This document shows positions 3,048 to 21,576 of a DNA stretch of 25,804 nucleotides, one piece after another. Location: positions 1 to 25,804 of IMG/VR virus record IMGVR_UViG_648276650_000007; one strand, 5' to 3'. Made by a program: the position numbers and the translations under genes. Every line of letters begins with the position of its first letter. Positions within the stretch are counted from its first letter, which is position 1. The notes beneath the pieces were generated by a model. That model was given only the letters and a program-made list of their open reading frames with translations, did not search any database and was not told the origin of the DNA. Origin of the DNA: a virus. Its lineage: Duplodnaviria > Heunggongvirae > Uroviricota > Caudoviricetes.

Positions 3048-3948
3048 CCGTTCCTCCGTTGGTTACGCTCCACTGCGTACATGATGCCGCCTGTGTTTTG
3101 TTCAGGACCACATCCGCCAGAGGAGAAGCCAGCTCCACACGCTGCACACCCTCAACATGCAGGGCGGCAAAGATGGCGCTACGGCGAATATCCCGACCAA
3201 GACGCGTCTGACTGGCGATGTACTTCTGCAGGCTGGCTTTTGCCGCTGCCATTACCGGCTCTGCTTCCGGTCCCGGATAGAGAAAAATGGTGGCTTCCAC
3301 GCGATACGGGATGATTTCTGCGCTGCGAACCGTCAGACGGTCAGCCACCGGGCGGACGTTCTCACTGTTCAGAGCTTTTTCCACCACGTCCAGCAGGTCT
3401 TTTTCTGCAGTTCCATCGCCTTCGCGGCTAAGGACAGTCAGCACCACCTCTGCAGGTGCCGGGCTGGTTGCACTGGCATCCGCCACCCTACCGTCGGCGC
3501 TTCGGGCATGAAATTCATAAGCTGCAGTTGGCCCCGCAACAGAAAGCCCTTCAAAGGCTGCAGGCACACGCAGGCGTAACGCTTCATCGCTTTCCATCAC
3601 AGCTGCAACGGGCGGCACAGCATCATTATCAGCAGGCGTCACCGTCAGGCGTGTCACGTTGTAGTTGGCAGCGAGCTGGTCAAGATCGCCGCCCATCGCG
3701 TAAGCCACCATCACCGCCTGTGCGGCTTCGTTAATGCGCTGGCGCAGAAGCAACTCACGGTAAGCGTTCTCCTGCAACAATTTAGTGACGGGTTCAGATT
3801 CCAGTTCCAGCGTGCGGATCACGGCTTCCTGCTCATCTTTCGGATGAAGCGCCACAAATTCTGCCTTGCGTTCGGCAAGCAGCGTCTCAAAGTCCGGCAC
3901 ATCCACAATCTGCGGTGCAGGCAACTGCGAAAGGTCAATCATTGCCAT
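3040..3948 (-). CDS. J: baseplate protein J
   Basis: ORF 3040..3987. Start placed at Met14 (MAMIDLSQLPAPQIV), which aligns with the P2 gpJ N-terminus; ~302 aa. ...GRDIRRSAIFAALHVEGVQRVELASPLADVVL is P2 J-like. Confidence 0.85.
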   Translation of the reverse strand: MAMIDLSQLPAPQIVDVPDFETLLAERKAEFVALHPKDEQEAVIRTLELESEPVTKLLQENAYRELLLRQRINEAAQAVMVAYAMGGDLDQLAANYNVTRLTVTPADNDAVPPVAAVMESDEALRLRVPAAFEGLSVAGPTAAYEFHARSADGRVADASATSPAPAEVVLTVLSREGDGTAEKDLLDVVEKALNSENVRPVADRLTVRSAEIIPYRVEATIFLYPGPEAEPVMAAAKASLQKYIASQTRLGRDIRRSAIFAALHVEGVQRVELASPLADVVLNKTQAASCTQWSVTNGGTDE

Positions 3949-6332: not shown

Positions 6333-6706
6333 GCTGCTACCTGTTGCGCCATCTGATTACGGGTGATCCAGAAGGCAATAACGGTCAGTAGATAAAAGAC
6401 CAGGGTAATAGCCCACCCCGTCCAGGCGAGACTTACAACAATCAGCAATCGCATCACCCAACTGGTAAATACGTTTTCTTTTCGGGTAATTGTCTTCAGC
6501 AAAGATGCCCTTAACTCCTGCCAGAGCGGGCCATTCTTAATTAACGCAGCCAGTGCTACCGGAATTACCGCCCATGTCAGCAAACAGGCTACCCAAACGC
6601 CGGACGCTGCCAGTACCGGAAAAATCCTCTGCGGATACACCATTGCTGCGATTAACAGCGCCATCCATAACATCAGAAACAGTCCGCTGATTAATTTCTT
6701 TTTCAT
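6329..6706 (-). CDS. LysA-like lysis-associated membrane protein
   Basis: ORF 6329..6778. Start placed at Met25 (MKKKLISGLFLMLWMALLIAAMV) because it abuts the endolysin stop at 6708; several hydrophobic segments. Confidence 0.6.
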   Translation of the reverse strand: MKKKLISGLFLMLWMALLIAAMVYPQRIFPVLAASGVWVACLLTWAVIPVALAALIKNGPLWQELRASLLKTITRKENVFTSWVMRLLIVVSLAWTGWAITLVFYLLTVIAFWITRNQMAQQVAA

Positions 6707-6707
6707 T

Positions 6708-7220
6708 TCAGTTTGCTCCCTGTAAACACCAGGCCATCTCCCGCGCACGGCGGTTATCCAGCCCCTGATTAAAAACACCTTTCACATAAACCCAGCGCGG
6801 CAACTGTCGGCATGCATCCGCCCAGCGCCGCTGATTGAGCAATTTCACCAGCGTGGAACTACAGGCATTGCCCGTCCCCACGTTGAAGGCAAACGACACC
6901 GTAGCGTCATACACCTTCTGCGGCGGCTGTTGCTTCACACACCTTTCCAGCGCCCGCTCCACTCGTAGCACGTTGGAGATCAGCCCTTCAGCTGCCTGTC
7001 GTTCCGTAATAATTTTGCCGGGAATGACGCCCGACGTATTACCAATGCCGTCGGTCCAGACACCCGCGCTGCACTGATACGGCTGCAGACGACAGCCTTC
7101 ATAATCGGCGATCAGTTTCAGTCCCTCCTCGGAGGTGTGAAGCTGCTGAAACCCCGGCAGCGTGGCAGCAATAGCCAGCACGGCCCCGACAAGGCAGCGT
7201 TTAACGATTGATGGATTCAT
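6708..7220 (-). CDS. endolysin, T4-lysozyme-like (GH24), possibly signal-anchored
   Basis: 170 aa; E-x8-D-x-T-like catalytic region (SEEGLKLIADYEGCRLQPYQCSAGVWTDGIGNT); weakly hydrophobic Gly/Ala-rich N-terminus (RCLVGAVLAIAATLPGF); sits between holin and LysA. Confidence 0.85.
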   Translation of the reverse strand: MNPSIVKRCLVGAVLAIAATLPGFQQLHTSEEGLKLIADYEGCRLQPYQCSAGVWTDGIGNTSGVIPGKIITERQAAEGLISNVLRVERALERCVKQQPPQKVYDATVSFAFNVGTGNACSSTLVKLLNQRRWADACRQLPRWVYVKGVFNQGLDNRRAREMAWCLQGAN

Positions 7221-7623: not shown

Positions 7624-8150
7624 CAGATAAGCTCCACTGTGCAGTGCGGCGCATCCTGCACCCGGCTGATGGCCCAGCGGGCGTCACGCCATAAATCACC
7701 GCTTGCTTCCGCCAGTTCCTCGCCTCGCTTCGCACCGGATGCCGTGGCGTCATAGTCCTGGTAACGTTCGTTGAGCATGGCGCGTGCCCAGCAATAAACC
7801 GCGTTGAAATAGTGCTGAATGCGCTCGCTTTTGCCGTCCAGTTGTTCCGCCGGGACTTCTGCCAGCGAGGCATACCCCAGCATCTGCTGGCGTCTGCGAA
7901 ACTCATACAGCTCTGCGTTGACCTCCGAAATTGCCGACAGAGCAACCTGTTTTAAACGCGGCTGCGTCACCGTGCCGTCAGTGCGCATCACACTGCGAAA
8001 CTCCGACAGGTCCACATCAGGCCAGAACGGCGTATTCCTGATGATTTCCGCCTGTTCCGGTGCCTGTTCTGGCGCAACAAACTTCATGCTGCTTTCTCCT
8101 GAAATAGAGGGCGGTGGACGGGGTTTTGATGTGGCAGTGCCTTTCGCCAC
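7623..8150 (-). CDS. L: head completion/stabilisation protein L
   Basis: 175 aa; ...IIRNTPFWPDVDLSEF...ELWRDARWAISRVQDAPHCTVELI resembles P2 gpL. Confidence 0.85.
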   Translation of the reverse strand: MAKGTATSKPRPPPSISGESSMKFVAPEQAPEQAEIIRNTPFWPDVDLSEFRSVMRTDGTVTQPRLKQVALSAISEVNAELYEFRRRQQMLGYASLAEVPAEQLDGKSERIQHYFNAVYCWARAMLNERYQDYDATASGAKRGEELAEASGDLWRDARWAISRVQDAPHCTVELI

Positions 8151-8182: not shown

Positions 8183-8833
8183 TCAGCGGCTGTCATTGCG
8201 CAGTCTGCGCTCCAGCTGCTGTTTGTCTTTTTTCACGCCACAGCGGGGATCGAGCTGTAACGCATGGTTGAGATGATTAAGGGCAGACGCCGGATTTCTT
8301 TCACTCAGGACAGCGCCAATCGCTTTATGCAGACGCGCCCGTGACTGGTCCGGCATATCCATACCGTCTGTCAGCTCCAGGGTCTGCAGCAACAGATCGG
8401 CATCAAAGCCGGTGGCGGCAAGCATTGCGCTCTGGGCTGCATCTGCCATTTCCTCTGCCAGCACGGTCTGCACGTTGCGGTTACCTAACGGCATCACCCA
8501 GCCATGACGCAGGGCGTGACGCCCGATCTCCAGCGCCCCGGCATAATCTCCGGCATCAATGCGCCACAGCATCACGTACATCAGCACGTCATCCTGTTGA
8601 GCGCCTCCGGCAGCCAGGACACCCTCCGCCCAAGCGGCGTACTTCGGCAGCAGCTCCACCTTGATTTCCGCTTTTTTGACCGTGGACTGAACGCCCTTGA
8701 GACGGCGGCGGTCTTCCGCCAGTTGCAGCAGCATCAGGTCATAGCCCGACGCGTGGCGAACGCTGCCGCCCTCGCGGGCGGCCTGTTCAGCCTGAACGCG
8801 CAGGCGATGCTGCCGTGCGGGACTCAGGCTCAT
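8183..8833 (-). CDS. M: terminase small (endonuclease) subunit M
   Basis: 216 aa; MSLSPARQHRLRVQ...DDVLMYVMLWRIDAGDYAGALEIGRHALRHG resembles P2 gpM. Confidence 0.85.
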   Translation of the reverse strand: MSLSPARQHRLRVQAEQAAREGGSVRHASGYDLMLLQLAEDRRRLKGVQSTVKKAEIKVELLPKYAAWAEGVLAAGGAQQDDVLMYVMLWRIDAGDYAGALEIGRHALRHGWVMPLGNRNVQTVLAEEMADAAQSAMLAATGFDADLLLQTLELTDGMDMPDQSRARLHKAIGAVLSERNPASALNHLNHALQLDPRCGVKKDKQQLERRLRNDSR

Positions 8834-10887: not shown

Positions 10888-12654
10888 ATGAACACCACAC
10901 TGACACCCGCAGATCTCGATCCCCGTCGGCAGGCCATGCTGCTGTACTTTCAGGGATACCGCGTAGCCCGCATTGCTGAAATGCTGGGCGAGAAAGTTGC
11001 AACCGTTCACAGCTGGAAAAAACGCGACAAGTGGGGTGACTATGGGCCGCTTGATCAGATGCAGCTCACCACCGCCGCACGCTACTGCCAGCTCATTATG
11101 AAGGAGCACAAAGAAGGGAAAGATTTCAAAGAGATTGACCTGCTGGCGCGCCAGTCGGAGCGCCATGCGCGGATCGGCAAGTTTAACAATGGCGGCAACG
11201 AAGCCGACTTAAACCCTAACGTCGCCAACCGCAACAAAGGCCCGCGCCGTCAGCCGGAAAAGAACGTTTTCACCGATGAACAGATTGAGAAGTTGGAAGA
11301 AATCTTCCATTCCTCCATGTTCAACTACCAGCGCCACTGGTGGGAAGCCGGAAAAACCAACCGCATCCGCAACCTGCTGAAGTCACGCCAGATCGGCGCG
11401 ACCTTCTATTTTGCCCGTGAAGCCCTGATTGACGCCCTGCTAACCGGGCGTAACCAGATTTTCCTTTCCGCCAGCAAGGCTCAGGCCCACGTCTTTAAGC
11501 AGTACATCATCGACTTCGCCAAAGAAGTGGAGGTGGAGCTGAAAGGCGATCCGATGGTGCTTCCTAACGGGGCCACGCTGTACTTCCTCGGCACCAATGC
11601 CCGCACGGCCCAGAGTTACCACGGCAACCTGTATCTGGATGAATATTTCTGGATACCGAAATTCCAGGAGCTGCGCAAAGTGGCTTCCGGTATGGCTATT
11701 CACAAAAAATGGCGACAAACCTATTTTTCCACGCCATCCAGCCTGACACACAGTGCTTATCCGTTCTGGTCCGGTGCGCTGTTCAACCGAGGGCGCAGCA
11801 AAGCCGATAAGGTGGACATCGACCTGTCCCACAGCAATCTGGCCCCCGGCCTGCTGTGCGCAGACGGGCAGTACCGCCAGATAGTCACTGTGGAAGATGC
11901 GGTGCGCGGCGGCTGTAACCTGTTCGACCTCGACCAGTTGCGCATGGAGTACAGCCCGGACGAATACCAGAACCTGCTGATGTGTGAGTTCGTGGACGAT
12001 CTCGCGTCTGTGTTCCCACTCAGCGAGCTGCAGGCGTGCATGGTGGACAGTTGGGAAGTCTGGACCGACTTTCATGCACTGGCCCTGCGCCCGTTTGGCT
12101 GGCGCGAAGTGTGGATCGGATATGACCCGGCGAAAGGTACGCAGAACGGCGACAGCGCCGGATGCGTGGTGGTGGCGCCGCCAGCCGTGCCGGGCGGTAA
12201 GTTCCGCATTCTTGAGCGTCACCAGTGGCGCGGAATGGACTTCCGCGCCCAGGCTGACGCCATCAAAAAACTGACCGAACAGTACAACGTGACCTATATC
12301 GGTATCGACTCAACCGGCGTTGGTCACGGGGTTTACGAGAACGTGAAAGCGTTTTTTCCTGCCGTCCGGGAGTTTGTCTACAACCCCAACGTTAAAAACG
12401 CCCTGGTACTCAAGGCCTACGACATTATCAGCCACCGCCGTCTGGAGTTTGACGCCGGACACACCGACATAGCGCAGTCCTTTATGGCAATCCGTCGCGC
12501 CACCACCGCCAGTGGCAACCGCCCGACCTATGAAGCCAGCCGCAGCGAAGAAGCCAGCCACGCCGATCTGGCCTGGGCAACGATGCACGCACTGTTTAAC
12601 GAACCGCTGCAGGGCGAATCCGCCAATACCAGCAATATTGTGGAGATTTTTTGA
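10888..12654 (+). CDS. P: terminase large (ATPase) subunit P
   Basis: 588 aa, the size of P2 gpP; N-terminus MNTTLTPADLDPRRQAMLLYFQGYRVARIAEMLG is P2 P-like; overlaps the portal start by 4 nt. Confidence 0.9.
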   Translation: MNTTLTPADLDPRRQAMLLYFQGYRVARIAEMLGEKVATVHSWKKRDKWGDYGPLDQMQLTTAARYCQLIMKEHKEGKDFKEIDLLARQSERHARIGKFNNGGNEADLNPNVANRNKGPRRQPEKNVFTDEQIEKLEEIFHSSMFNYQRHWWEAGKTNRIRNLLKSRQIGATFYFAREALIDALLTGRNQIFLSASKAQAHVFKQYIIDFAKEVEVELKGDPMVLPNGATLYFLGTNARTAQSYHGNLYLDEYFWIPKFQELRKVASGMAIHKKWRQTYFSTPSSLTHSAYPFWSGALFNRGRSKADKVDIDLSHSNLAPGLLCADGQYRQIVTVEDAVRGGCNLFDLDQLRMEYSPDEYQNLLMCEFVDDLASVFPLSELQACMVDSWEVWTDFHALALRPFGWREVWIGYDPAKGTQNGDSAGCVVVAPPAVPGGKFRILERHQWRGMDFRAQADAIKKLTEQYNVTYIGIDSTGVGHGVYENVKAFFPAVREFVYNPNVKNALVLKAYDIISHRRLEFDAGHTDIAQSFMAIRRATTASGNRPTYEASRSEEASHADLAWATMHALFNEPLQGESANTSNIVEIF

Positions 12655-13688
12655 TGGGAAAGAGTAAGAAGAACCGCGCTGCGGCGACGAAACAGATCCA
12701 GCTTAAAAGTCAAACTACAGCCGAAGCATTCAGCTTCGGCGATCCCGTTCCTGTTCTGGACCGCCGAGAACTGCTGGATTATGTGGAATGCGTACAGATG
12801 GACCGTTGGTATGAGCCGCCCGTCAGCTTTGACGGACTGGCGCGCACCTTCCGCGCCGCCGTGCATCACAGTTCCCCGATTGCAGTAAAGTGCAACATTC
12901 TGACCAGTACCTATATCCCTCATCCGCTGCTCAGCCAGCAGGCTTTTTCGCGTTTTGTGCAGGACTATCTGGTATTTGGTAACGCCTACCTGGAGAAACG
13001 CACGAACCGATTCGGTGAAGTTATCGCTATTGAGCCTGCGCTTGCAAAATACACCCGACGCGGATTAGACCTGGATACCTACTGGTTTGTGCAATACGGT
13101 ATGACAACCCTGCCGTATCAGTTCACGAAAGGCAGCATTTTTCATCTGATGGAACCGGACATCAACCAGGAGATCTACGGCCTGCCCGGTTATCTTTCTG
13201 CCATTCCGTCAGCCCTGCTCAACGAGTCCGCCACGCTGTTCCGCCGCAAGTATTACATTAACGGTAGCCATGCAGGCTTCATCATGTATATGACCGATGC
13301 CGCGCAGAACCAGGAAGATGTGAACAACCTCCGCAACGCAATGAAAAGCGCCAAAGGCCCTGGCAACTTCCGCAATCTGTTTATGTACTCGCCTAACGGC
13401 AAAAAGGACGGACTTCAGATTATCCCGTTGTCAGAGGTCGCAGCGAAGGATGAGTTTTTGAATATCAAGAACGTGAGTCGGGATGACATGATGGCAGCAC
13501 ATCGTGTGCCGCCGCAAATGATGGGGATTATGCCGAGTAATGTTGGGGGTTTTGGGGATGTGGAGAAAGCCAGCCGCGTCTTTGTTCGCAACGAGTTGAT
13601 ACCTCTGCAGAAGCGCCTTCAGGAATTGAACGACTGGCTTGGAGAAGAAGTCATGCGTTTTGAAGATTATAATTTAGGTATTGAATGA
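12651..13688 (+). CDS. Q: portal protein Q
   Basis: 345 aa, the size of P2 gpQ; co-directional and coupled with P, as in the P2 P-Q operon. Confidence 0.9.
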   Translation: MMGKSKKNRAAATKQIQLKSQTTAEAFSFGDPVPVLDRRELLDYVECVQMDRWYEPPVSFDGLARTFRAAVHHSSPIAVKCNILTSTYIPHPLLSQQAFSRFVQDYLVFGNAYLEKRTNRFGEVIAIEPALAKYTRRGLDLDTYWFVQYGMTTLPYQFTKGSIFHLMEPDINQEIYGLPGYLSAIPSALLNESATLFRRKYYINGSHAGFIMYMTDAAQNQEDVNNLRNAMKSAKGPGNFRNLFMYSPNGKKDGLQIIPLSEVAAKDEFLNIKNVSRDDMMAAHRVPPQMMGIMPSNVGGFGDVEKASRVFVRNELIPLQKRLQELNDWLGEEVMRFEDYNLGIE

Positions 13689-13693
13689 TATTT

Positions 13694-13717
13694 AAAAGCC
13701 TGTACAAACAGGCTTTT
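13694..13717. terminator. intrinsic terminator hairpin between convergent Q and the cargo operon
   Basis: Perfect 10-bp stem AAAAGCCTGT / ACAGGCTTTT with ACAA loop, followed by a T-rich run on the + strand; lies between the Q stop (13688) and the stop of the minus-strand gene at 13758. Confidence 0.6.
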
Positions 13718-13757
13718 ATTCTTTAGTTTAAAATCACCAAGACATGAGCATTAAAAC

Positions 13758-14423
13758 TTAAAGATCCGGATCTACAGGCTCATGATATAGATTTACAGGG
13801 TAATGAATAACTTCATAATTCAGTTGAGTAACTGTGTGAACATGCTGGCTATAAAAAACCAATGGATTTTTTTGACAAGGAGTAATCGTTATAGATTTAC
13901 AGGCATGAATTCTTGGTGCGAATTTATCTAAATGCGCCTTCCAGTTGCTCATCATTTCATTACATTTTCTATTACGAGTATAGATAATCAATCCACCACT
14001 TGCGCTGTCTACGGTCCCTGTACTATATCGTTCAGTGAGTTGAGCATACCCTTTAAATAAATAACTATATGAAGATGTATGTTTTTTGGCTTCGCCATGC
14101 CAAATATAATCCTTTAGTTTTATTGTAATATCACAATGTCCGCGCTGATTATTTTCATGAAATGCTTCAATGTCCATATCTTTATTTTTGATATTGGCCA
14201 ATAAAATTAAAGTAAGCTGATCTTCTGTTAAATCGAAGTTTAACTTATTTGAATTCTCTTCTATTTCCTTTACAGCAGAATCAAGTTCAATCCTGACAAA
14301 TTGTTTGAAATTATCGTACGATTGAAGTGCAAATCTAACACGAGTAATAGAAGCATTAATACGCTGAAGAAAAATATCATTATCAATATCAGCCAAACTC
14401 ATTGCTGCAGACATTTTTAACAT
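13758..14423 (-). CDS. hypothetical protein, cargo gene 3 of 3; possible PD-(D/E)xK-type nuclease
   Basis: 221 aa, AT-rich codon usage unlike the flanking phage genes. Start ATG overlaps the stop of gene 2 (TGATG). Contains EAFHE...GHCDITIKLKDYIWHGEAKK, compatible with an E...D...ExK nuclease core; this is inference from motif spacing only. Confidence 0.65.
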   Translation of the reverse strand: MLKMSAAMSLADIDNDIFLQRINASITRVRFALQSYDNFKQFVRIELDSAVKEIEENSNKLNFDLTEDQLTLILLANIKNKDMDIEAFHENNQRGHCDITIKLKDYIWHGEAKKHTSSYSYLFKGYAQLTERYSTGTVDSASGGLIIYTRNRKCNEMMSNWKAHLDKFAPRIHACKSITITPCQKNPLVFYSQHVHTVTQLNYEVIHYPVNLYHEPVDPDL

Positions 14424-14869
14424 CAGATAATATCCTTTGATTTAGATTCATCTAATGTAAAAAAAGGAAATACGAATGACTTATAGTCATACATAAGCTC
14501 CCCTGTAAATGGGTTTGCTAAAGATTGACTGATTTCCGCCTCAATAACTTCCTCTATTTCAAGTTCTACAGGGTCATGAAAATCATCAATGAACCAATAA
14601 TTGAGTTTTAAAAAATCAACCTTTGGGCTACAAAGAATTTGTATGGCCGGATAGATAACCTGCTCATACGTTTCTGGCTGTAAAACCTTATTATAACCAC
14701 CAGCTATATTAAATAAATCCTTATAACTTAAAGCTATATTTGATGATTTTTTAGCCCTTGCCTCGATTTCATCGTACAAATAGCAAGCTAACGCCCCAAT
14801 TTCAGGGCGTTCTGCACACATTTCTTTGATGATCTTGGGCATATCACCATCCTTCATTGCTGACTCCAA
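14423..14869 (-). CDS. hypothetical protein, cargo gene 2 of 3 (small acidic protein)
   Basis: 148 aa; start is directly adjacent to the gene 1 stop; acidic C-terminal half (DDFHDPVELEIEEVIEAEISQ); no motif I recognise. Confidence 0.6.
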   Translation of the reverse strand: MESAMKDGDMPKIIKEMCAERPEIGALACYLYDEIEARAKKSSNIALSYKDLFNIAGGYNKVLQPETYEQVIYPAIQILCSPKVDFLKLNYWFIDDFHDPVELEIEEVIEAEISQSLANPFTGELMYDYKSFVFPFFTLDESKSKDII

Positions 14870-15976
14870 TTATAATATCAGCTTTGTGAGGGTTTCGAAA
14901 TCATCTTTGGATATACATTTACTTAATATAGCATAGTTAACAGGAGAGCAACTACTCCCTCCTAGATGCCTGCGGAGTGTTCCCGGAATGATAAGCTCTA
15001 CGTTATCCGCTAATTGCAGTTTTGGATTATTTCTATCAACTCTAATTCCAATACGATACAAACCAATACTGCCTACTGCTTTGATGCCTTCCTTATTAAA
15101 CAAATCATCACGTAAGTCTTTAGTGGCCACATTTTTCTTTTCTTTATGCGTAGTCCCCTCATTCGTCAAAAATGACAAATCAAAGACTTTATAGCTTAAT
15201 TTTGAATAAGGCAATGAATTTTGTTTGAAAATTGGCTCAATTAACGGATAAAAATCTTTTTCCGATGATTTAAATTCATAACCGACATGATTATACAATT
15301 CACGAATAATGTTACTCTTTGCAAAAGTAACATTATCACCAATAATATTACCATTAGTATCTACCAAAACATGAATTTTATTAGTAACAGAGTCTAATAT
15401 ACAGACATCAAAACATTGTCGCTTTTCTTTTCGCTTTGCAATAATTTCATCAAACTGCTTGTATTGCGCAAGTGCTGACGGGGGAATTTTTTCTCTTACA
15501 ACTAATTCTCTGACAGATGAAAAAACAAGTATTGACTGGGTGTTTTGAATAGAATAATTAACAAGTTCAGGTTGATTTTTTACAGCATTTTGCAATTGGA
15601 CATCATCAAGGATCGAATCAACCAATAATGATGGTTGATTCATCAAATTCCATTGGAAACTAAATCTGTCATTTAGTGTTTTAATTACACTATTATCTAC
15701 AGTCAAACTAAATATTGCTTTTTCACCATAAACGACCTGACCCAAAATTAGGTCATTTACGTTTGCCATAATGCCATCAAACTTTTGCCTATCTTTACTT
15801 TTAAGATCAATGAGGCTTTCTAGTATTTTTTCGTTTGTTGCTTCACGCCCCCTACCTGTTGGCAGCCCTAAAGACGCAATAATTGGCCTTGCAACGTTCC
15901 ATGTGAAACGTTCAGTTAAGGTCAAGATCGACTTTAACTCAGACTCAGAAAGCACTACTGGGACACTACCTGTCAT
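14870..15976 (-). CDS. hypothetical protein, cargo gene 1 of 3
   Basis: ORF 14870..15985 begins with GTG; the in-frame ATG at 15976 (MTGSVPVV...) is preceded by an AGGTG Shine-Dalgarno-like sequence. ~368 aa; no Walker A or other motif recognised by eye. Confidence 0.65.
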   Translation of the reverse strand: MTGSVPVVLSESELKSILTLTERFTWNVARPIIASLGLPTGRGREATNEKILESLIDLKSKDRQKFDGIMANVNDLILGQVVYGEKAIFSLTVDNSVIKTLNDRFSFQWNLMNQPSLLVDSILDDVQLQNAVKNQPELVNYSIQNTQSILVFSSVRELVVREKIPPSALAQYKQFDEIIAKRKEKRQCFDVCILDSVTNKIHVLVDTNGNIIGDNVTFAKSNIIRELYNHVGYEFKSSEKDFYPLIEPIFKQNSLPYSKLSYKVFDLSFLTNEGTTHKEKKNVATKDLRDDLFNKEGIKAVGSIGLYRIGIRVDRNNPKLQLADNVELIIPGTLRRHLGGSSCSPVNYAILSKCISKDDFETLTKLIL

Positions 15977-16125
15977 AACTTGCACCTAGTCATCCAAAAA
16001 GCAATAAGAATTTGCTCTTGTCTTAATTTATCCTTCGATACCTAACAAATTACCTCAATGTTGAAAAAATTTGCAAGCCATTTGCTTCTAAAAAGCGACC
16101 TTACTCAGAGTGTTACAAAACTAAG

Positions 16126-16139
16126 CGAGCGCGCGCTCG
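16126..16139. repeat. perfect 14-bp GC-rich palindrome CGAGCGCGCGCTCG
   Basis: Read directly from the sequence; lies in the non-coding GC-rich island between the AT-rich cargo operon and the lipoprotein genes, abutting the cos-like motif. Confidence 0.85.
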
Positions 16140-16154
16140 TATCCCCGCCACGCC
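16136..16154 (-). other. candidate cos (cohesive end) site
   Basis: Minus strand reads GGCGTGGCGGGGATACGAG. The first 13 nt match the 19-nt cohesive end I recall for phage 186 (GGCGTGGCGGGGAAAGCAT) and 12 of 13 match P2 (GGCGAGGCGGGGAAAGCAC). Orientation is correct relative to Q (5' end of the motif points toward Q). Depends on my memory of the cos sequences. Confidence 0.3.
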
Positions 16155-16634
16155 TGCCCGCTTTATGTAGTAGTTTTCATGCACCTGCATGACATGAGCA
16201 AAAGCCCGCCAGTTCTGGCATGTCTTAGCCAAACCGATCCTCAAACGATCATGCGAACTCATGCAGCATAGACATGCATGACATGAAAATCGGTCAAACC
16301 TTGAAACCAGTCATAAATATGAGCCAGCTTAATACACACTAAATAGCTGCGTCTAATACTGCTACACCTGCCGTTTACTGACATGTGGCATGTCGCGTAA
16401 GGACAACATACTGTAGGCCAGATACAGCAGGATCAGGCGAAGAAAACGGCCCCACGCCTTACCCAGCAAGAGCCAAGGGCCAAGGGCTAACCGAAAGTGG
16501 AACATTATTCCGCGCAGTTATTTAGTGTCAGCTCTTTTGAGCTAAAATCAAGTTTCAACATGAGGGTCTGTGCAGGCTTTCTCATCCCGCTAATTTATAC
16601 AGCACACCTATATGGCTATGAGTTTGTCATGCCC

Positions 16635-16667
16635 GCTAATCCTGTTAGGATTAGCCTTGTTTTTTTA
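16635..16667 (+). terminator. intrinsic-terminator-like hairpin 17 nt upstream of the lipoprotein start
   Basis: 8-bp stem GCTAATCC / GGATTAGC, loop TGTTA, followed by CTTGTTTTTTT. Confidence 0.5.
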
Positions 16668-16683
16668 CGATTGGGATAGGGAT

Positions 16684-17490
16684 ATGAAGAAATTAACTGG
16701 CGTAATTGCTTTTGCTCTGCTGCTTACTGCTTGTGACAAACCGAAGATCGATGCATCAAGCGATCAGTCGATGAAAGAGTCCATTCAAAAAGTAAGAGAG
16801 TCCTTACCTGCAGATAAAAAAGCTCAGTTTGATGATGCAGTTAAAGTCGTTGCCTTTAGCCAAATCAACATGAGAGAGCTAATGCAGGCTGGAACGTCTT
16901 CTGGGGACGTCTACGAAACAAAAATTAAGTCAGCGTTGGAAGGTAAAACTGGTGATGAGGTTATAAATTACGCACAAACTATTCGCCTTGAGCGTGAGAA
17001 GAGAGAGAAAGAACAGGCTCTGCAAGAAATAAAAGAACTGGAAGCCAAACAAACCTCTGCAACACAGGCTGCGGAAAAAATGAAAGCCTTCAAGGTCGAA
17101 CGTTCCCGTTTTTATTTCCAGAAAGAGGATTACGGCAATGATCAGCCAATTCTGGATATTAGCGTTGAAAACGGAACAGACAAAGCGGTTGCCAGAGTAT
17201 TCTTCAAAGGAGTTATTGCCAGCCCAGGAAGAAGCGTCCCTTGGTTCTCTGACGTCTTCAACTATAAAATTTCTGGAGGTCTGGAACCAGGTGAGAAAGC
17301 CAACTGGAAATTAGCCCCTAATAGATACTCTGATTGGGGAAAACTTAAAGTTCCGGCTGATGCTATATTTACCGTCACAGTCATTGGCCTTGAAGACGCA
17401 GATGGGAAATCGATCTATGGTGACGCCGAGTTTTCAGAACGCGATGCTGACAGACTGAATCAACTTAGAGATAAGTACCTTTCTAAATAA
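16684..17490 (+). CDS. hypothetical lipoprotein
   Basis: ORF 16612..17490; start placed at Met25 (MKKLTGVIAFALLLTACDKPK) because of the signal peptide with lipobox LLTAC and the hairpin covering the upstream part; ~268 aa mature protein with a Lys/Glu-rich coiled-coil-like middle. Confidence 0.7.
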   Translation: MKKLTGVIAFALLLTACDKPKIDASSDQSMKESIQKVRESLPADKKAQFDDAVKVVAFSQINMRELMQAGTSSGDVYETKIKSALEGKTGDEVINYAQTIRLEREKREKEQALQEIKELEAKQTSATQAAEKMKAFKVERSRFYFQKEDYGNDQPILDISVENGTDKAVARVFFKGVIASPGRSVPWFSDVFNYKISGGLEPGEKANWKLAPNRYSDWGKLKVPADAIFTVTVIGLEDADGKSIYGDAEFSERDADRLNQLRDKYLSK

Positions 17491-17598
17491 TCAAAATTAA
17501 AGCTACTTCAGCATAGTCCCTGAGAATATATATCAGGGACTACCAAATCACGGCAGATACCCCTTAGTTAAATAATGCTAAACGCTTAGAAAGAGACC

Positions 17599-17898
17599 AT
17601 GAAACGTATAACTTTCTCCTTTACGTTAGTAGCAATCATCATAGCCTTAGCTGGATGTGCTTTGCCAGATAAAGACGGCGACTTCGGAGCTTATGTTCAT
17701 GCCTGTCAGCAATATGCATACGGAAAATCCTATGCCTTTGAGAATAGAGACTTCGCGTATAAGGTCTGTAAGGACGCGGCGAAACTGTGGAGTGACGAAG
17801 TTCCTGGCTATATCATCAGGCAAATTCAACTACATCCTGAAATACCCAGCGAAGAAATTAAATATGCAGCCATGGCCGGCTCTTTGGGGAACAACTAA
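17599..17898 (+). CDS. hypothetical small lipoprotein
   Basis: 99 aa; signal peptide with lipobox IALAGC; co-directional with the preceding lipoprotein gene. Confidence 0.6.
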   Translation: MKRITFSFTLVAIIIALAGCALPDKDGDFGAYVHACQQYAYGKSYAFENRDFAYKVCKDAAKLWSDEVPGYIIRQIQLHPEIPSEEIKYAAMAGSLGNN

Positions 17899-17965
17899 AT
17901 CAACTTATGAGAAAGGGGCTTAATGCCCCTTTTCGGTTCCCTTATCAAGTCCTAACGAAACAAGC

Positions 17966-18256
17966 TCAACTGATTACATCCATCGACCTACTGTATTCAT
18001 GGCTTCGAATTTTCGCCATCAACTCATCAGTCAATTCAGAAACCCACTGCAGAGCTAGCCCCTTCTCTTCATCACTACACTCACTAGCCGCTACAAGCTT
18101 AAGAAAAAAATCAATGCGCTGGAGCTTCAAAGACTCCAAAAAATAGTCCTGCATCTTTCCTCCTATAACACCATACGCAATACTGTACATATAACCACTG
18201 TTTATATTTACAGTATATAATAATCTTACTGATGTAAAACGTTTTTTTACGTTCAT
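17966..18256 (-). CDS. hypothetical protein downstream of replication gene A
   Basis: 96 aa AT-rich ORF; no recognisable motif; start uncertain. Confidence 0.3.
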   Translation of the reverse strand: MNVKKRFTSVRLLYTVNINSGYMYSIAYGVIGGKMQDYFLESLKLQRIDFFLKLVAASECSDEEKGLALQWVSELTDELMAKIRSHEYSRSMDVIS

Positions 18257-18307
18257 CAGCCTGATATGCCTGGTATTATTAAGAGCACGAATTGTTAACC
18301 CGCGTGA

Positions 18308-20722
18308 TTAATACATGTTCCGCCACTTATCATCTTCCTGCAAACGCTGGTTCCGATAGAAGATACGCAGGCCTGCTCCTGACGGAATACTGCCACCGCA
18401 AAGGAGCAAATCGACCTCTTTCTCGCTGCCATCAAATCCTCTGGACTTCAGTTCATAGACGAGCTGCTGACGCTGATACTCTGTAATTCGCTGTTTGTAG
18501 TCTTTACGCCGTTTCGGTTTAACCAGGCGCAATCTTGCTGCCAGTTCCCGGCGCTCTTTTTTGCTCATACTGTGCAGGTAATCGTGCAATTCCTTGTCAT
18601 CCATGCAGGTAATGTCCGTTCTGGTATCCCCATCTGCTGATTCATCTTTCTCATGTTGGTTCAAATTTTCAGCAAGGGGACAGTTATTGCCACGAGTCCA
18701 AGGGGCGCAAGCGCCCTGGTCGGCTGCCGCCTCCTGAACGTCAACGGCCTTACGAACCATTTTCCACTTCACTGCATGAGTGCAGATCTTGCCCTCTGCA
18801 ATGGGTGACCAGATGCCATAAATACGAATACCGTGATCGCCATAGGCGGTTGGCTCTTCGTTGATTTCATAAGCGGTTCTGATGAGGTGATATTTGCGGG
18901 GAACCAGTACGCCGCCCTGCTTCATGATGTAGGTGGCAAAACAACCAGCATCAGCAGCAGCCAGAATGGCATCAAGACGCGGGTTATCCAGTACCGGCGC
19001 ACCTGCTTTTTTGTCACCCTGTTGCCTTGCCGCCTGACCAGCCAGCAAGCGAAGTTCACGGTAAGCCTGACGTCCCGGAATACCAAAGAAGCGGAATTGC
19101 TGAACACGATGCAGAGACGCCCAGGCATTAACGTATTCAGCGTTATCACGCAGGGATTTACCCGTTTCCTTGCTGATCTCGCCAGCCAGACCACGCCCGT
19201 CAATGTTCTTACTGATGTATTTCGCGATGTAGCTTGTCGGCGTTCCTTTGCGCGGGTTTATCAGCTCAGATTTAAAGCGTGGACCAGTGTTATTACCCAG
19301 TTCCTCGCGGTCTTCACGGATGGCAAACTTACGCAACAATGCAGTAATGGCGCGGCGGTCTTTTTTGCGCATGAAACACAACAGGTGCCAGTGAACTGTA
19401 CCGTCATGATGCGGCTCAGCCACCCGCACGCCATACCAGCGCAACCCGGCTTTGTGTATCGCCTTACGAAATGCAGCAAACATGCCGACCAGATAATCGC
19501 TGCTTTGTCTTACCGTCGCATTTGTCCAGGTTGGGTTTGGTCTGCCGTTATTGAGCGTGGAATGGAAACGTGACGGACAGGTAATGGTGTAGAAAACGGC
19601 GCAGTCACCGCGCATTTCCGCGATAAGCTCCAGACCTTTAACACAGGCCATCATCTCATTGCGGCGGTGCGCCGGGTTGCTGCTGCTGGCGTTTACCACG
19701 TCTTCCATATCCAGCGTGTCGCCCTCTTCGTTCACCAGTTCATGAGAACGGAAAAACTCCAGTGACTTGCGGCGCTGCTCACGTTTATGCATCACGGCTT
19801 CATAGCTGACATAGGGAGATGCTTTTTTGCTGACCAGGCAGACAGCACGCAACTGCTCTTCCCGCCATTCGCAACGCATTTTCCATAATTTCCGGTACCA
19901 CCAGTCGGCGCACAACATACGCGCCAGCGAACCCGGAATGAGTTCATAGGGCACGGGTTTACGGCGGTTTCTTTTCCGACGGAGTTGCTCAAACGCAGGC
20001 GGGATGACATCCAGACGCAGGGTTTCCGCTGCCACCTTTTCCCATGTCTTGCGGATTTCTTCTGGCTTAACGTCATCGGTGGCATACAAATCACCACAAG
20101 CTGCATCAAGGCACATGCTCATATGCGCAGCGACAAGGGTAGACAGGCGTTTCACCTGATCCTGACTCATTTCAGGCAGAATCAGCAGGCCGTCCAGCCC
20201 TACATGGCTTGCCATAAAACGAAAAGATGCAGATAGCTGGCTGTCGCGTACATGCTCCAGTCGTTCCAGACATGGCTTAATCGTCTCACGTAAATAGCGG
20301 GAATAAGCCTTTGGCCTGCCCAAGCTGCTGAAGTATTCAATACGTTGCATCAGCGGCTTGCTGATATGGGAGGGCTGGGCGCTGACGTCTGCCAGAATGA
20401 CCATGTCCGGGTTAAAACGCTGCTGCTCATGCGCCAACTTTGCCCGGCTAATGAGCTTATCCTGCTCTATTTCGCGTTGGACAGGATCACGGGATTCATT
20501 AAAGAAATAACGCTCCCAGACCTGATCACTCAGTGCCTCGCGGCGCAGTTGTTCCTGCTCGTTATCGGCAGCGTACAGAGTGATCAGGTTTGAAAGCGCA
20601 GAAACCGGCGCAACTTCCGCCGGGTCCAGATAAGGGTTAATGGCCTTTTTCGGGCTGTTCCATGAGAACGATGCGGCAGCCTCGTTAAAGCCGCAGCAGT
20701 TGCTCATATCGGCATGGCTCAT
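18308..20722 (-). CDS. A: replication initiation endonuclease (P2 A / rolling-circle HUH family)
   Basis: 804 aa; HUH-like motif TVHWHLLCF and two-tyrosine motif [11 protein letters not shown]; size and position match P2 gene A; ATGA overlap with the upstream methylase stop. Confidence 0.9.
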
Positions 20723-21576
20723 GCACGTACTCCGTACACGGCAGAACTATCCACGCCACGCGAATAATCAAATCCCACCCAGCAGCGCGGCCCGGAAACA
20801 GCAATGATTTCTGTTGCTGATTTACTCTCACCAGCTGCTACGCCGATGCTGCGTTTTACCTTGATATAGTGGTGAGTAAAATTGCGATACAGCGAACGGA
20901 TCAGGGATGTGTCACTGTTAGAAACAATGACCGGATGTCCTTCTGATGACCGATGTTCAAGAACGGATGCCAGGTGATACTGGTCATCTTCAGTAAAGCC
21001 GTCAGCGTGATAGCCGGAAAACGTACCGTCATAAGGCGGATCGCAATACACCACATCCCCCGCCTTCAACATCGCCAGCGTTTCATCAAAGCTGGCGCAG
21101 ATAAACGTTGCTCGCTGGGCTTTTTCTGCAAAAGCGCGAATTTCTTTTTCAGGGAAATACGGATTTTTATAATTACCGTAGGGAATGTTGAAATGCCCGC
21201 TCTTGTTATAGCGACATAACCCACGGTAACCGTGACGATTGAGATACAGGAAATATACCGCTTTCATGAAATCAGTAATTTCAGTTGAGTAATTAAACTC
21301 CTGCCTTATGTTGTAATAAGCCACCTCCCTGTTTGCGATCTCAAATAAAACTTTGGCGCGAGATATAAACGATTCACAATCAGCGGCAACCTTTTTATAG
21401 AGGTTGATTAAATCAGGATTAATATCCGCAACCAGATAGCAGGGATAATCCGTCTCCATCATCACAGCACAGGAACCCGCGAAAGGTTCAACTAGTCGCG
21501 GACCAGCAGGAAGATGTTTTTTCAGTTCGGACATTACGGCGGTTTTATTTCCCGCCCATTTCAGGATGGTGCTCAT
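20719..21576 (-). CDS. Dam-like DNA N6-adenine methyltransferase
   Basis: ORF 20719..21636; start placed at Met21 ([11 protein letters not shown]), whose ATG forms an ATGA overlap with the stop of the upstream zinc-finger gene. Motifs EPFAGSCAV (AdoMet binding) and [10 protein letters not shown] (catalytic DPPY). Confidence 0.85.

Follow-up and report, generated by a model that had tools for sequence, protein, structure and literature searches.

The cohesive-end (cos) sites of coliphages P2 and 186 and of the satellite P4 lie between the portal gene Q and the replication gene A. They carry 19-nucleotide (nt) 5′ cohesive ends and a 55-base-pair (bp) core (Ziermann & Calendar 1990, quoted in PMC5694545). 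For Salmonella phage SEN8 (Felsduovirus; NC_047753.1), cos is given as ggcgtggcggggatacgag in the genome paper (PMC5427200). Foreign genes have been described next to cos in several relatives: in a 186-related prophage, the retrons Ec67/Ec86 stand in place of the DNA between cos and a terminator (Dodd & Egan 1996, quoted in PMC5694545), the Ec67 insertion between cos and a packaging gene being restated in PMC7826664; phiCTX has a cos-Q insertion (Nakayama et al. 1999, quoted in PMC5694545); and ORF1-4 of phiRSY1 lie between cosL and the Q homologue, a position called a suggested hotspot (PMC5694545). In Escherichia coli P2-like prophages, Rousset et al. 2022 (PMC9122126) describe one cos-adjacent hotspot "between gpA and gpQ", and a NAR 2026 paper (PMC13586616) and the iLund4u preprint likewise take A to Q as a single hotspot. 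Here, we analyze 25,804 nt of prophage DNA (IMG/VR record IMGVR_UViG_648276650_000007, positions 1 to 25,804; hereafter, the window), in which positions 16130-16279 represent, with a probability that we put at about 0.92, the cos site of an apparently intact P2-family prophage in E. coli that combines Fels-2/SEN8-type packaging with 186-type regulation genes. This site separates two slots of accessory cargo.

The cos site and its conserved island

The elements assigned to the site are listed below, with box positions counted from the first nucleotide of the 19-mer, taken as 0.

16136-16154, minus strand: cosN, predicted 19-nt cohesive end GGCGTGGCGGGGATACGAG; same as the SEN8 19-mer, homologous to P2 and 186
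16126-16139, no strand: perfect 14-nt palindrome, seen by sequence inspection
16130-16135, no strand: GCGCGC directly after the 19-mer, at the Q-side edge of the conserved island; conservation 0.95-1.00
16155-16279, minus strand: right-arm recognition block, presumed to bind terminase; boxes shared with P2, 186, P4, and SEN8
16274-16278, 16261-16265, and 16179-16183, minus strand: TGCAT boxes at -124, -111, and -29 (five-junction alignment)
16251-16255, minus strand: CGCAT box at -101 (GCAT at -100; five-junction alignment)

The plus strand at 16136-16154 reads CTCGTATCCCCGCCACGCC, hence the minus strand reads GGCGTGGCGGGGATACGAG, a 19-mer that a sequence-only reading of the window had proposed as cos by comparison with the cohesive ends of P2 and 186. 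The 19-mers on which it relied agree with the records of both phages: positions 1-19 are GGCGAGGCGGGGAAAGCAC in P2, annotated as cosL, and GGCGTGGCGGGGAAAGCAT in 186, annotated as cos with the cut positions stated. The proposed match of the first 13 nt to both phages stands for 186 (13/13; 15/19 in total) and falls one nucleotide short for P2 (12/13, with position 5 differing; 14/19 in total). The start of the 19-mer fits the P2-family cohesive-end pattern GGCG(A/T)GGCGGGG, and its end reads ATACGAG, versus AAAGCAC or AAAGCAT in the P2/186/P4 group. The exact 13-mer GGCGWGGCGGGGA is present once in the window, against a chance expectation of ~0.0015 (2 strands x 25.8 kb x 2 / 4^13); the sole further matches, with 2 mismatches, fall within coding sequence at 7717 and 20750. 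Among the Fels-2/RE-2010-type relatives, the SEN8 record opens with the identical 19-mer, labeled "putative cos site" at positions 1-19, and ends at the base before it, and the SEN8 right arm is ~89% identical to that of the window. More broadly, ~150 bp around the site match the cos regions of 78-89 phage records (E ~1e-50). Phage records that end near the site (Cartapus and Midge) were unhelpful, as their ends do not coincide with the 19-mer. As a side observation, the 19-mer occurs twice in one IMG/VR viral contig (IMGVR_UViG_3300011853_000021, L245), once on each strand and at a distance of 3.2 kb (3447-3465 and 6704-6722), which could be an assembly artefact or reflect two head-to-head elements.

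The alignment to the P2 and 186 cos regions that the sequence-only reading had called for was made with the circularized cos junctions of P2, 186, P4, SEN8, and the window, and it places the 19-mer and the flanking boxes in register. The TGCAT boxes (-124/-123, -111, and -29) and GCAT (-100) are identically spaced in all five junctions, and AAAAC (~-24), AAAGYGGGC (before the nick), and GCGCGC (after position 19) are likewise in register. With the first nucleotide of the 19-mer counted as +1, GCGCGC also occupies +21 to +26 in P2, 186, and P4. In the right arm of the window, AAAAC and AAAGCGGGCA adjoin the nick, and the third box differs, being CGCAT here versus TGCAT in P2/186/P4. The window contains a single site with this architecture. 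The cos of phage lambda (cosQ-cosN-cosB) is similarly built from a nicking site and, to one side of it, a terminase recognition arm with several boxes, but its sequence is unrelated and its overhang has 12 nt instead of 19 nt; the recognition arm in the window is on the right end of the genome.

To delimit the site, we calculated ungapped column conservation over 73 distinct relatives retrieved from IMG/VR via the Q protein. Conservation rises from the random level (~0.35-0.5) on the Q side, with ~0.4-0.6 left of 16128, to 0.95-1.00 from 16130 on, and beyond 16279 it is random again. The resulting island (16130-16279, ~150-151 bp) is free of indels, lies between unrelated flanks, and stops on the A side at the outermost TGCAT box. 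The 19-mer is invariant (100%), the stretch 16130-16162 is almost so, and GCGCGC is the sole left-arm sequence retained by all relatives; the conserved left arm of this lineage measures ~7 bp, whereas P2 and 186 share more. The island has 64 invariant columns, and the window departs from the consensus at none of these; it differs at 12 polymorphic columns only, each variant also being found in at least 3 other loci.

The GC palindrome had been described as perfect and as abutting the 19-mer. The plus strand at 16126-16139, CGAGCGCGCGCTCG, is indeed a perfect 14-nt palindrome, although it shares 4 nt (CGAG) with the end of the 19-mer and is conserved in part: the inner AGCGCGCGCT (16128-16137, 10 nt) alone is kept in relatives, and the outer bases are specific to the window's locus, so that the full palindrome is partly fortuitous. 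No convincing structure emerged when the island was folded as single-stranded DNA (z = -1.9), and neither secondary structure nor the complete 14-nt palindrome is given a role here. A separate feature lies within the island at 16203-16222, where the consensus of the relatives is a perfect inverted repeat, GCCCGCCAG-TT-CTGGCGGGC, followed by TTTT on the minus strand; it is terminator-like and faces transcription from the A side. The corresponding sequence in 186 is CGCCAGAGCTGGCG, and the second arm is degenerate in the window (CTGGCATGT), a variant found in a minority of loci too.

Assignment of cos and competing explanations

The position of the site agrees with the genetic map of the P2 family, since it lies between Q and A in a window that also encodes the terminase.

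12651-13688, plus strand: portal gene Q (Pfam Phage_portal; RefSeq annotation)
10888-12654, plus strand: terminase large subunit P, ATPase (Pfam Terminase_6N, Terminase_6C, Terminase_5)
8183-8833, minus strand: terminase endonuclease (small) subunit, gpM equivalent (RefSeq annotation of an identical record, 14784-15434, i.e., window coordinate + 6601)
18308-20722, minus strand: replication endonuclease A (Pfam Phage_GPA, 2e-127)
13693-13718, plus strand: AT-rich terminator hairpin after Q (11-bp stem, then a T run)

The window is a P2-family prophage whose Q-to-A interval (13400-18400) is identical to that of E. coli 2021CK-01361 and of E. coli O125ac strain C 236-04A (NZ_CP109924.1); in the latter, the whole prophage, from the tail genes to the integrase, is annotated without pseudogenes and with the 186-type regulators CI, CII, and Fil. 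Its backbone is ~95% identical to Klebsiella phages such as KP12. We assign 16130-16279 as cos because of the 19-mer identity with SEN8, the shared spacing of the boxes, the conserved island, and the finding of nothing cos-like beside Q. In the packaging mechanism that P2 and 186 suggest for this prophage, the terminase (gpM-like endonuclease subunit and gpP ATPase) would recognize the ~125-bp right arm with its phased TGCAT boxes and introduce two nicks at a distance of 19 nt around GGCGTGGCGGGGATACGAG, which would produce 5′ cohesive ends. The nicks would fall at 16155/16154 (minus strand) and 16136/16135 (plus strand), and the linear virion genome would start on the Q side and end on the A side.

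Several points weigh against this assignment. The cleavage positions are carried over from P2 and 186, and the putative second nick is the least secure of the placements. P2 and 186 have other bases at four of the last six positions of the 19-mer (14, 16, 17, and 19). The SEN8 record and paper present its cos as an annotation only ("putative", "annotation resulted in the identification"). Terminase binding to the TGCAT boxes is putative, being deduced from their conservation. Finally, the whole window lacks a DinI/Tum-like gene, which at least 162 of the 229 loci with the window's cos type possess.

The differences at positions 14, 16, 17, and 19 and the "putative" status of the SEN8 site would be expected if the cos region were right and the cohesive end were other than the exact 19-mer, with a shifted second nick or another overhang length. 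The stretch 16130-16162 is so nearly invariant that conservation cannot place the nicks. However, every flanking element is spaced as in P2, 186, and P4, whose records annotate the ends, and GCGCGC follows position 19 in 5/5 sequences, which makes such a shift improbable. We rate only marginally lower the alternative that the site is a relic, homologous to cos and idle, in a prophage that no longer packages its DNA. The missing DinI/Tum-like gene is consistent with decay, but the head, tail, lysis, terminase, replication, repressor, and integrase genes are all annotated without pseudogenes, the island is unchanged at all 64 invariant columns, and the identical Q-to-A interval occurs in several E. 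coli genomes. The DinI-like gene, looked at by comparing the A-side region (16280-18300) with a related locus (L088, 5633-5866), resembles the C-terminal part of 186 Tum, an SOS-dependent antirepressor; since this gene is absent, the prophage may not be SOS-inducible. Lastly, a chance resemblance, with the true cos directly downstream of Q as in P2 and 186 (167 bp and 176 bp from the portal stop), is hardly credible, given the breadth of the 150-bp match to phage cos regions noted above and the content of the 70 bp from the Q stop to the first cargo gene, an AT-rich hairpin only. A second cos beside Q, a chance match, and a decayed cos were all considered and rejected, the chance match being refuted by the comparative data, and we retain 16130-16279 as the cos site.

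Two cargo slots on either side of cos

The sequence-only reading had placed cos about 2.4 kb from Q, and the gap from the Q stop (13688) to the near edge of the 19-mer (16136) is 2447 bp, versus 167 bp in P2 and 176 bp in 186. It had further located a three-gene cassette between Q and cos, and lipoprotein genes between cos and A, where P2 carries old/tin; both placements are borne out (13758-15985 and 16612-17898, respectively), the gap between cos and A being 2153 bp. The extent of the cargo on each side was derived from a coverage profile of 80 close relatives over window positions 12000-21000.

13689-16129, no strand: Q-side cargo slot, 2.44 kb; 2-5% coverage among the 80 close relatives
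16280-17960, no strand: A-side cargo slot, 1.68 kb, at the old/tin (TO) position of P2; 2% coverage among relatives

Coverage exceeds 94% up to ~13550, is down to 25% by the Q stop, and stays at 2-5% over 13700-16100; it returns to 92% over the cos island, drops to 2% over 16300-17950, and reaches 86-89% from ~17960 on. Base composition follows the same division, with G+C contents of 34% (Q-side slot), 53% (island), and 43% (A-side slot), versus 55% and 48% in the backbone. The outer limit of the Q-side slot is of a different kind. Over the last ~120 nt of Q, nucleotide homology among relatives fades at scattered points while the protein remains 93-97% identical, and the slot limit is therefore diffuse here, unlike both cos-side limits. 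An ungapped conservation profile anchored on the last 100 nt of Q failed (8 loci aligned). The terminator after Q belongs to the cargo (window 13570-13718): the hairpin, which could be bidirectional, is unrelated in sequence to the 186 tW and P2 tQ hairpins and lacks conservation among relatives.

Cargo on both sides of cos had been predicted for this prophage. The window does carry it, in an arrangement that is not unusual. More than 400 bp separate the Q stop from cosN in 69/70 close IMG/VR relatives and in 43/51 species-representative genomes (median, ~1.7 kb), and both slots are filled in 41/70 and 19/51 of these, respectively. With IMG/VR contigs (loci L173-L411) sorted by their cos 19-mer and a slot counted as filled when longer than 400 bp, the Q-side slot is filled in 76/85 contigs carrying GGCGTGGCGGGGATACGAG, versus 8/30 of those with a 186-type end and 5/61 of those with a P2-type end. 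How often this slot is used thus depends strongly on lineage; these counts make P2 and 186 the sparse cases and indicate that Q-side cargo is the norm in the window's lineage. In SEN8, a hypothetical protein and an HNH endonuclease are likewise encoded between cos and the portal gene, and the SEN8 cargo differs from that of the window on both sides.

The contents of the two slots are combined almost independently of each other. In a set of 140 distinct Q-to-A intervals, we counted 79 Q-slot types and 44 A-slot types in 125 combinations, and at least 2 partners were found for 28/30 recurrent Q types and 16/16 recurrent A types. For the window's own cargo, we found 4 A types alongside the cassette type and 6 Q types alongside the lipoprotein type. 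For instance, the cassette is also found with DarT/macro (DarTG) and DinI on the A side; the Q-side partner of the lipoprotein pair can be a three-gene STAS-like cassette or a combination of an AAA ATPase and an HNH endonuclease. In related phages, unrelated genes thus occupy the same position between conserved flanks, as in a hotspot.

Because cos lies at the ends of the late operon (Q, P) and of the early operon (A), the DNA on either side of it is probably dispensable, and this DNA would have become two separate cargo slots. Selection for packaging would keep the island intact, as the only homology between the slots, which could thereby serve as a hinge for the separate exchange of each by homologous recombination. 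We regard a hinge role of the island as the simplest reading of these patterns. On this reading, which is safer than that of a new defence system considered below, the gpA-gpQ hotspot would consist of two independently exchanging slots hinged on cos, the use of which depends on lineage.

As in the earlier cos-Q insertions, foreign genes in the window replace the DNA from cos to the portal end, with phage functions undisturbed. Unlike those insertions, the three-gene cassette of the window is uncharacterized, and the native terminator after Q has been replaced too.

Cargo genes and the gpA-gpQ hotspot

The genes carried in the two slots are the following.

14870-15985, minus strand: cassette gene 1, 371 amino acids (aa; annotated 368 aa), RdgC-like predicted fold
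14423-14869, minus strand: cassette gene 2, 139-148 aa, acidic (pI 4.4), PHROG 11490 (function unknown)
13758-14423, minus strand: cassette gene 3, 221 aa, predicted PD-(D/E)xK nuclease, BamHI-like
16612-17490, plus strand: DUF6694 lipoprotein (Pfam DUF6694, 4e-22; PHROG 7468 over residues 25-292; RefSeq name)
17599-17898, plus strand: 99-aa lipoprotein with lipobox LAGC (translation; PHROG 7666)

The three cassette genes recur as a unit in six other loci, in the same order, always in the Q-cos slot and always with the acidic protein gene between the other two, at protein identities of 44-99%. Their hosts are prophages of Escherichia, Rosenbergiella, and Plesiomonas, and both cassette protein families are small, unnamed, and almost entirely from Enterobacterales. 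The 221-aa protein has a predicted restriction-endonuclease-like fold with the D...(D/E)xK triad of PD-(D/E)xK enzymes; its weak match to Rep3_C (E 0.0026) did not reach the cut-off and gave way to the nuclease fold. Nothing useful came from comparing the cassette protein sequences with PDB, Pfam, PADLOC, and NCBIfam, and the cassette contains no methyltransferase. A promoter scan yielded 14 sites versus 14.2 in shuffled sequence; since such sites are no commoner than in shuffled sequence, no promoter was assigned to the cassette. Overall, it looks like an uncharacterized nuclease-based system. Its location makes anti-phage defence the obvious hypothesis. Neighbouring slot variants carry DarTG, the AAA ATPase-HNH endonuclease pair, and HEPN. 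In the window's instance of the gpA-gpQ defence hotspot, no known defence family was detected, with no PADLOC match for any of the six cargo proteins, and the literature searched for defence components resembling RdgC yielded nothing of relevance. That the cassette is a defence system against phages not described before, in which the RdgC-like protein would sense or clamp foreign DNA and the nuclease would be the effector, is offered tentatively, as an idea that may well prove wrong.

On the A side, the true start of the DUF6694 gene is likely M25, followed by the lipobox LLLTAC. The two lipoprotein genes travel together in three further loci (L015, L026, and L106) and are paired with at least 6 Q-side cargoes; a surface or superinfection-exclusion role of the pair is plausible. 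Two E. coli genomes matching 13400-18400 (H43 and H44) are ~780 bp longer in this interval and include an annotated IS1 family transposase. One of them, H43, lists the DUF6694 lipoprotein twice, and IS1 may interrupt the DUF6694 gene there.

Much of this was known already. The cos 19-mer had been published, both slots had been described (cos-Q in 1996-1999; cos-A as old/tin), and the arrangement is catalogued: the supplementary table of PMC9122126 lists WP_001251691 + WP_001580533 + WP_000822802 + WP_000148121 + WP_001324710 + WP_016239485, which is that of the window. The site is otherwise an ordinary, expected feature of a P2-family prophage. Our additions are modest, namely, the exact limits of the cos island, two independently assorting slots in the A-Q hotspot, and the lineage dependence of Q-side cargo. 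The limits of the island predict the minimal packaging signal of this phage lineage, a left arm of ~7 bp and a right arm of ~125 bp, which would be of use for cosmids or transducing particles. The studies of the gpA-gpQ hotspot deal with the same interval, which cos divides, in the window's lineage, into two units that assort independently; its precise location thus splits this much-mined region of P2-like prophages into two cargo slots. Catalogues that take the A-to-Q interval as a single arrangement merge unrelated modules, which blurs the prediction of defence systems by guilt by association. The window's locus, for example, is catalogued as one six-gene arrangement, yet its three-gene cassette and its lipoprotein pair each have 4-6 other partners.
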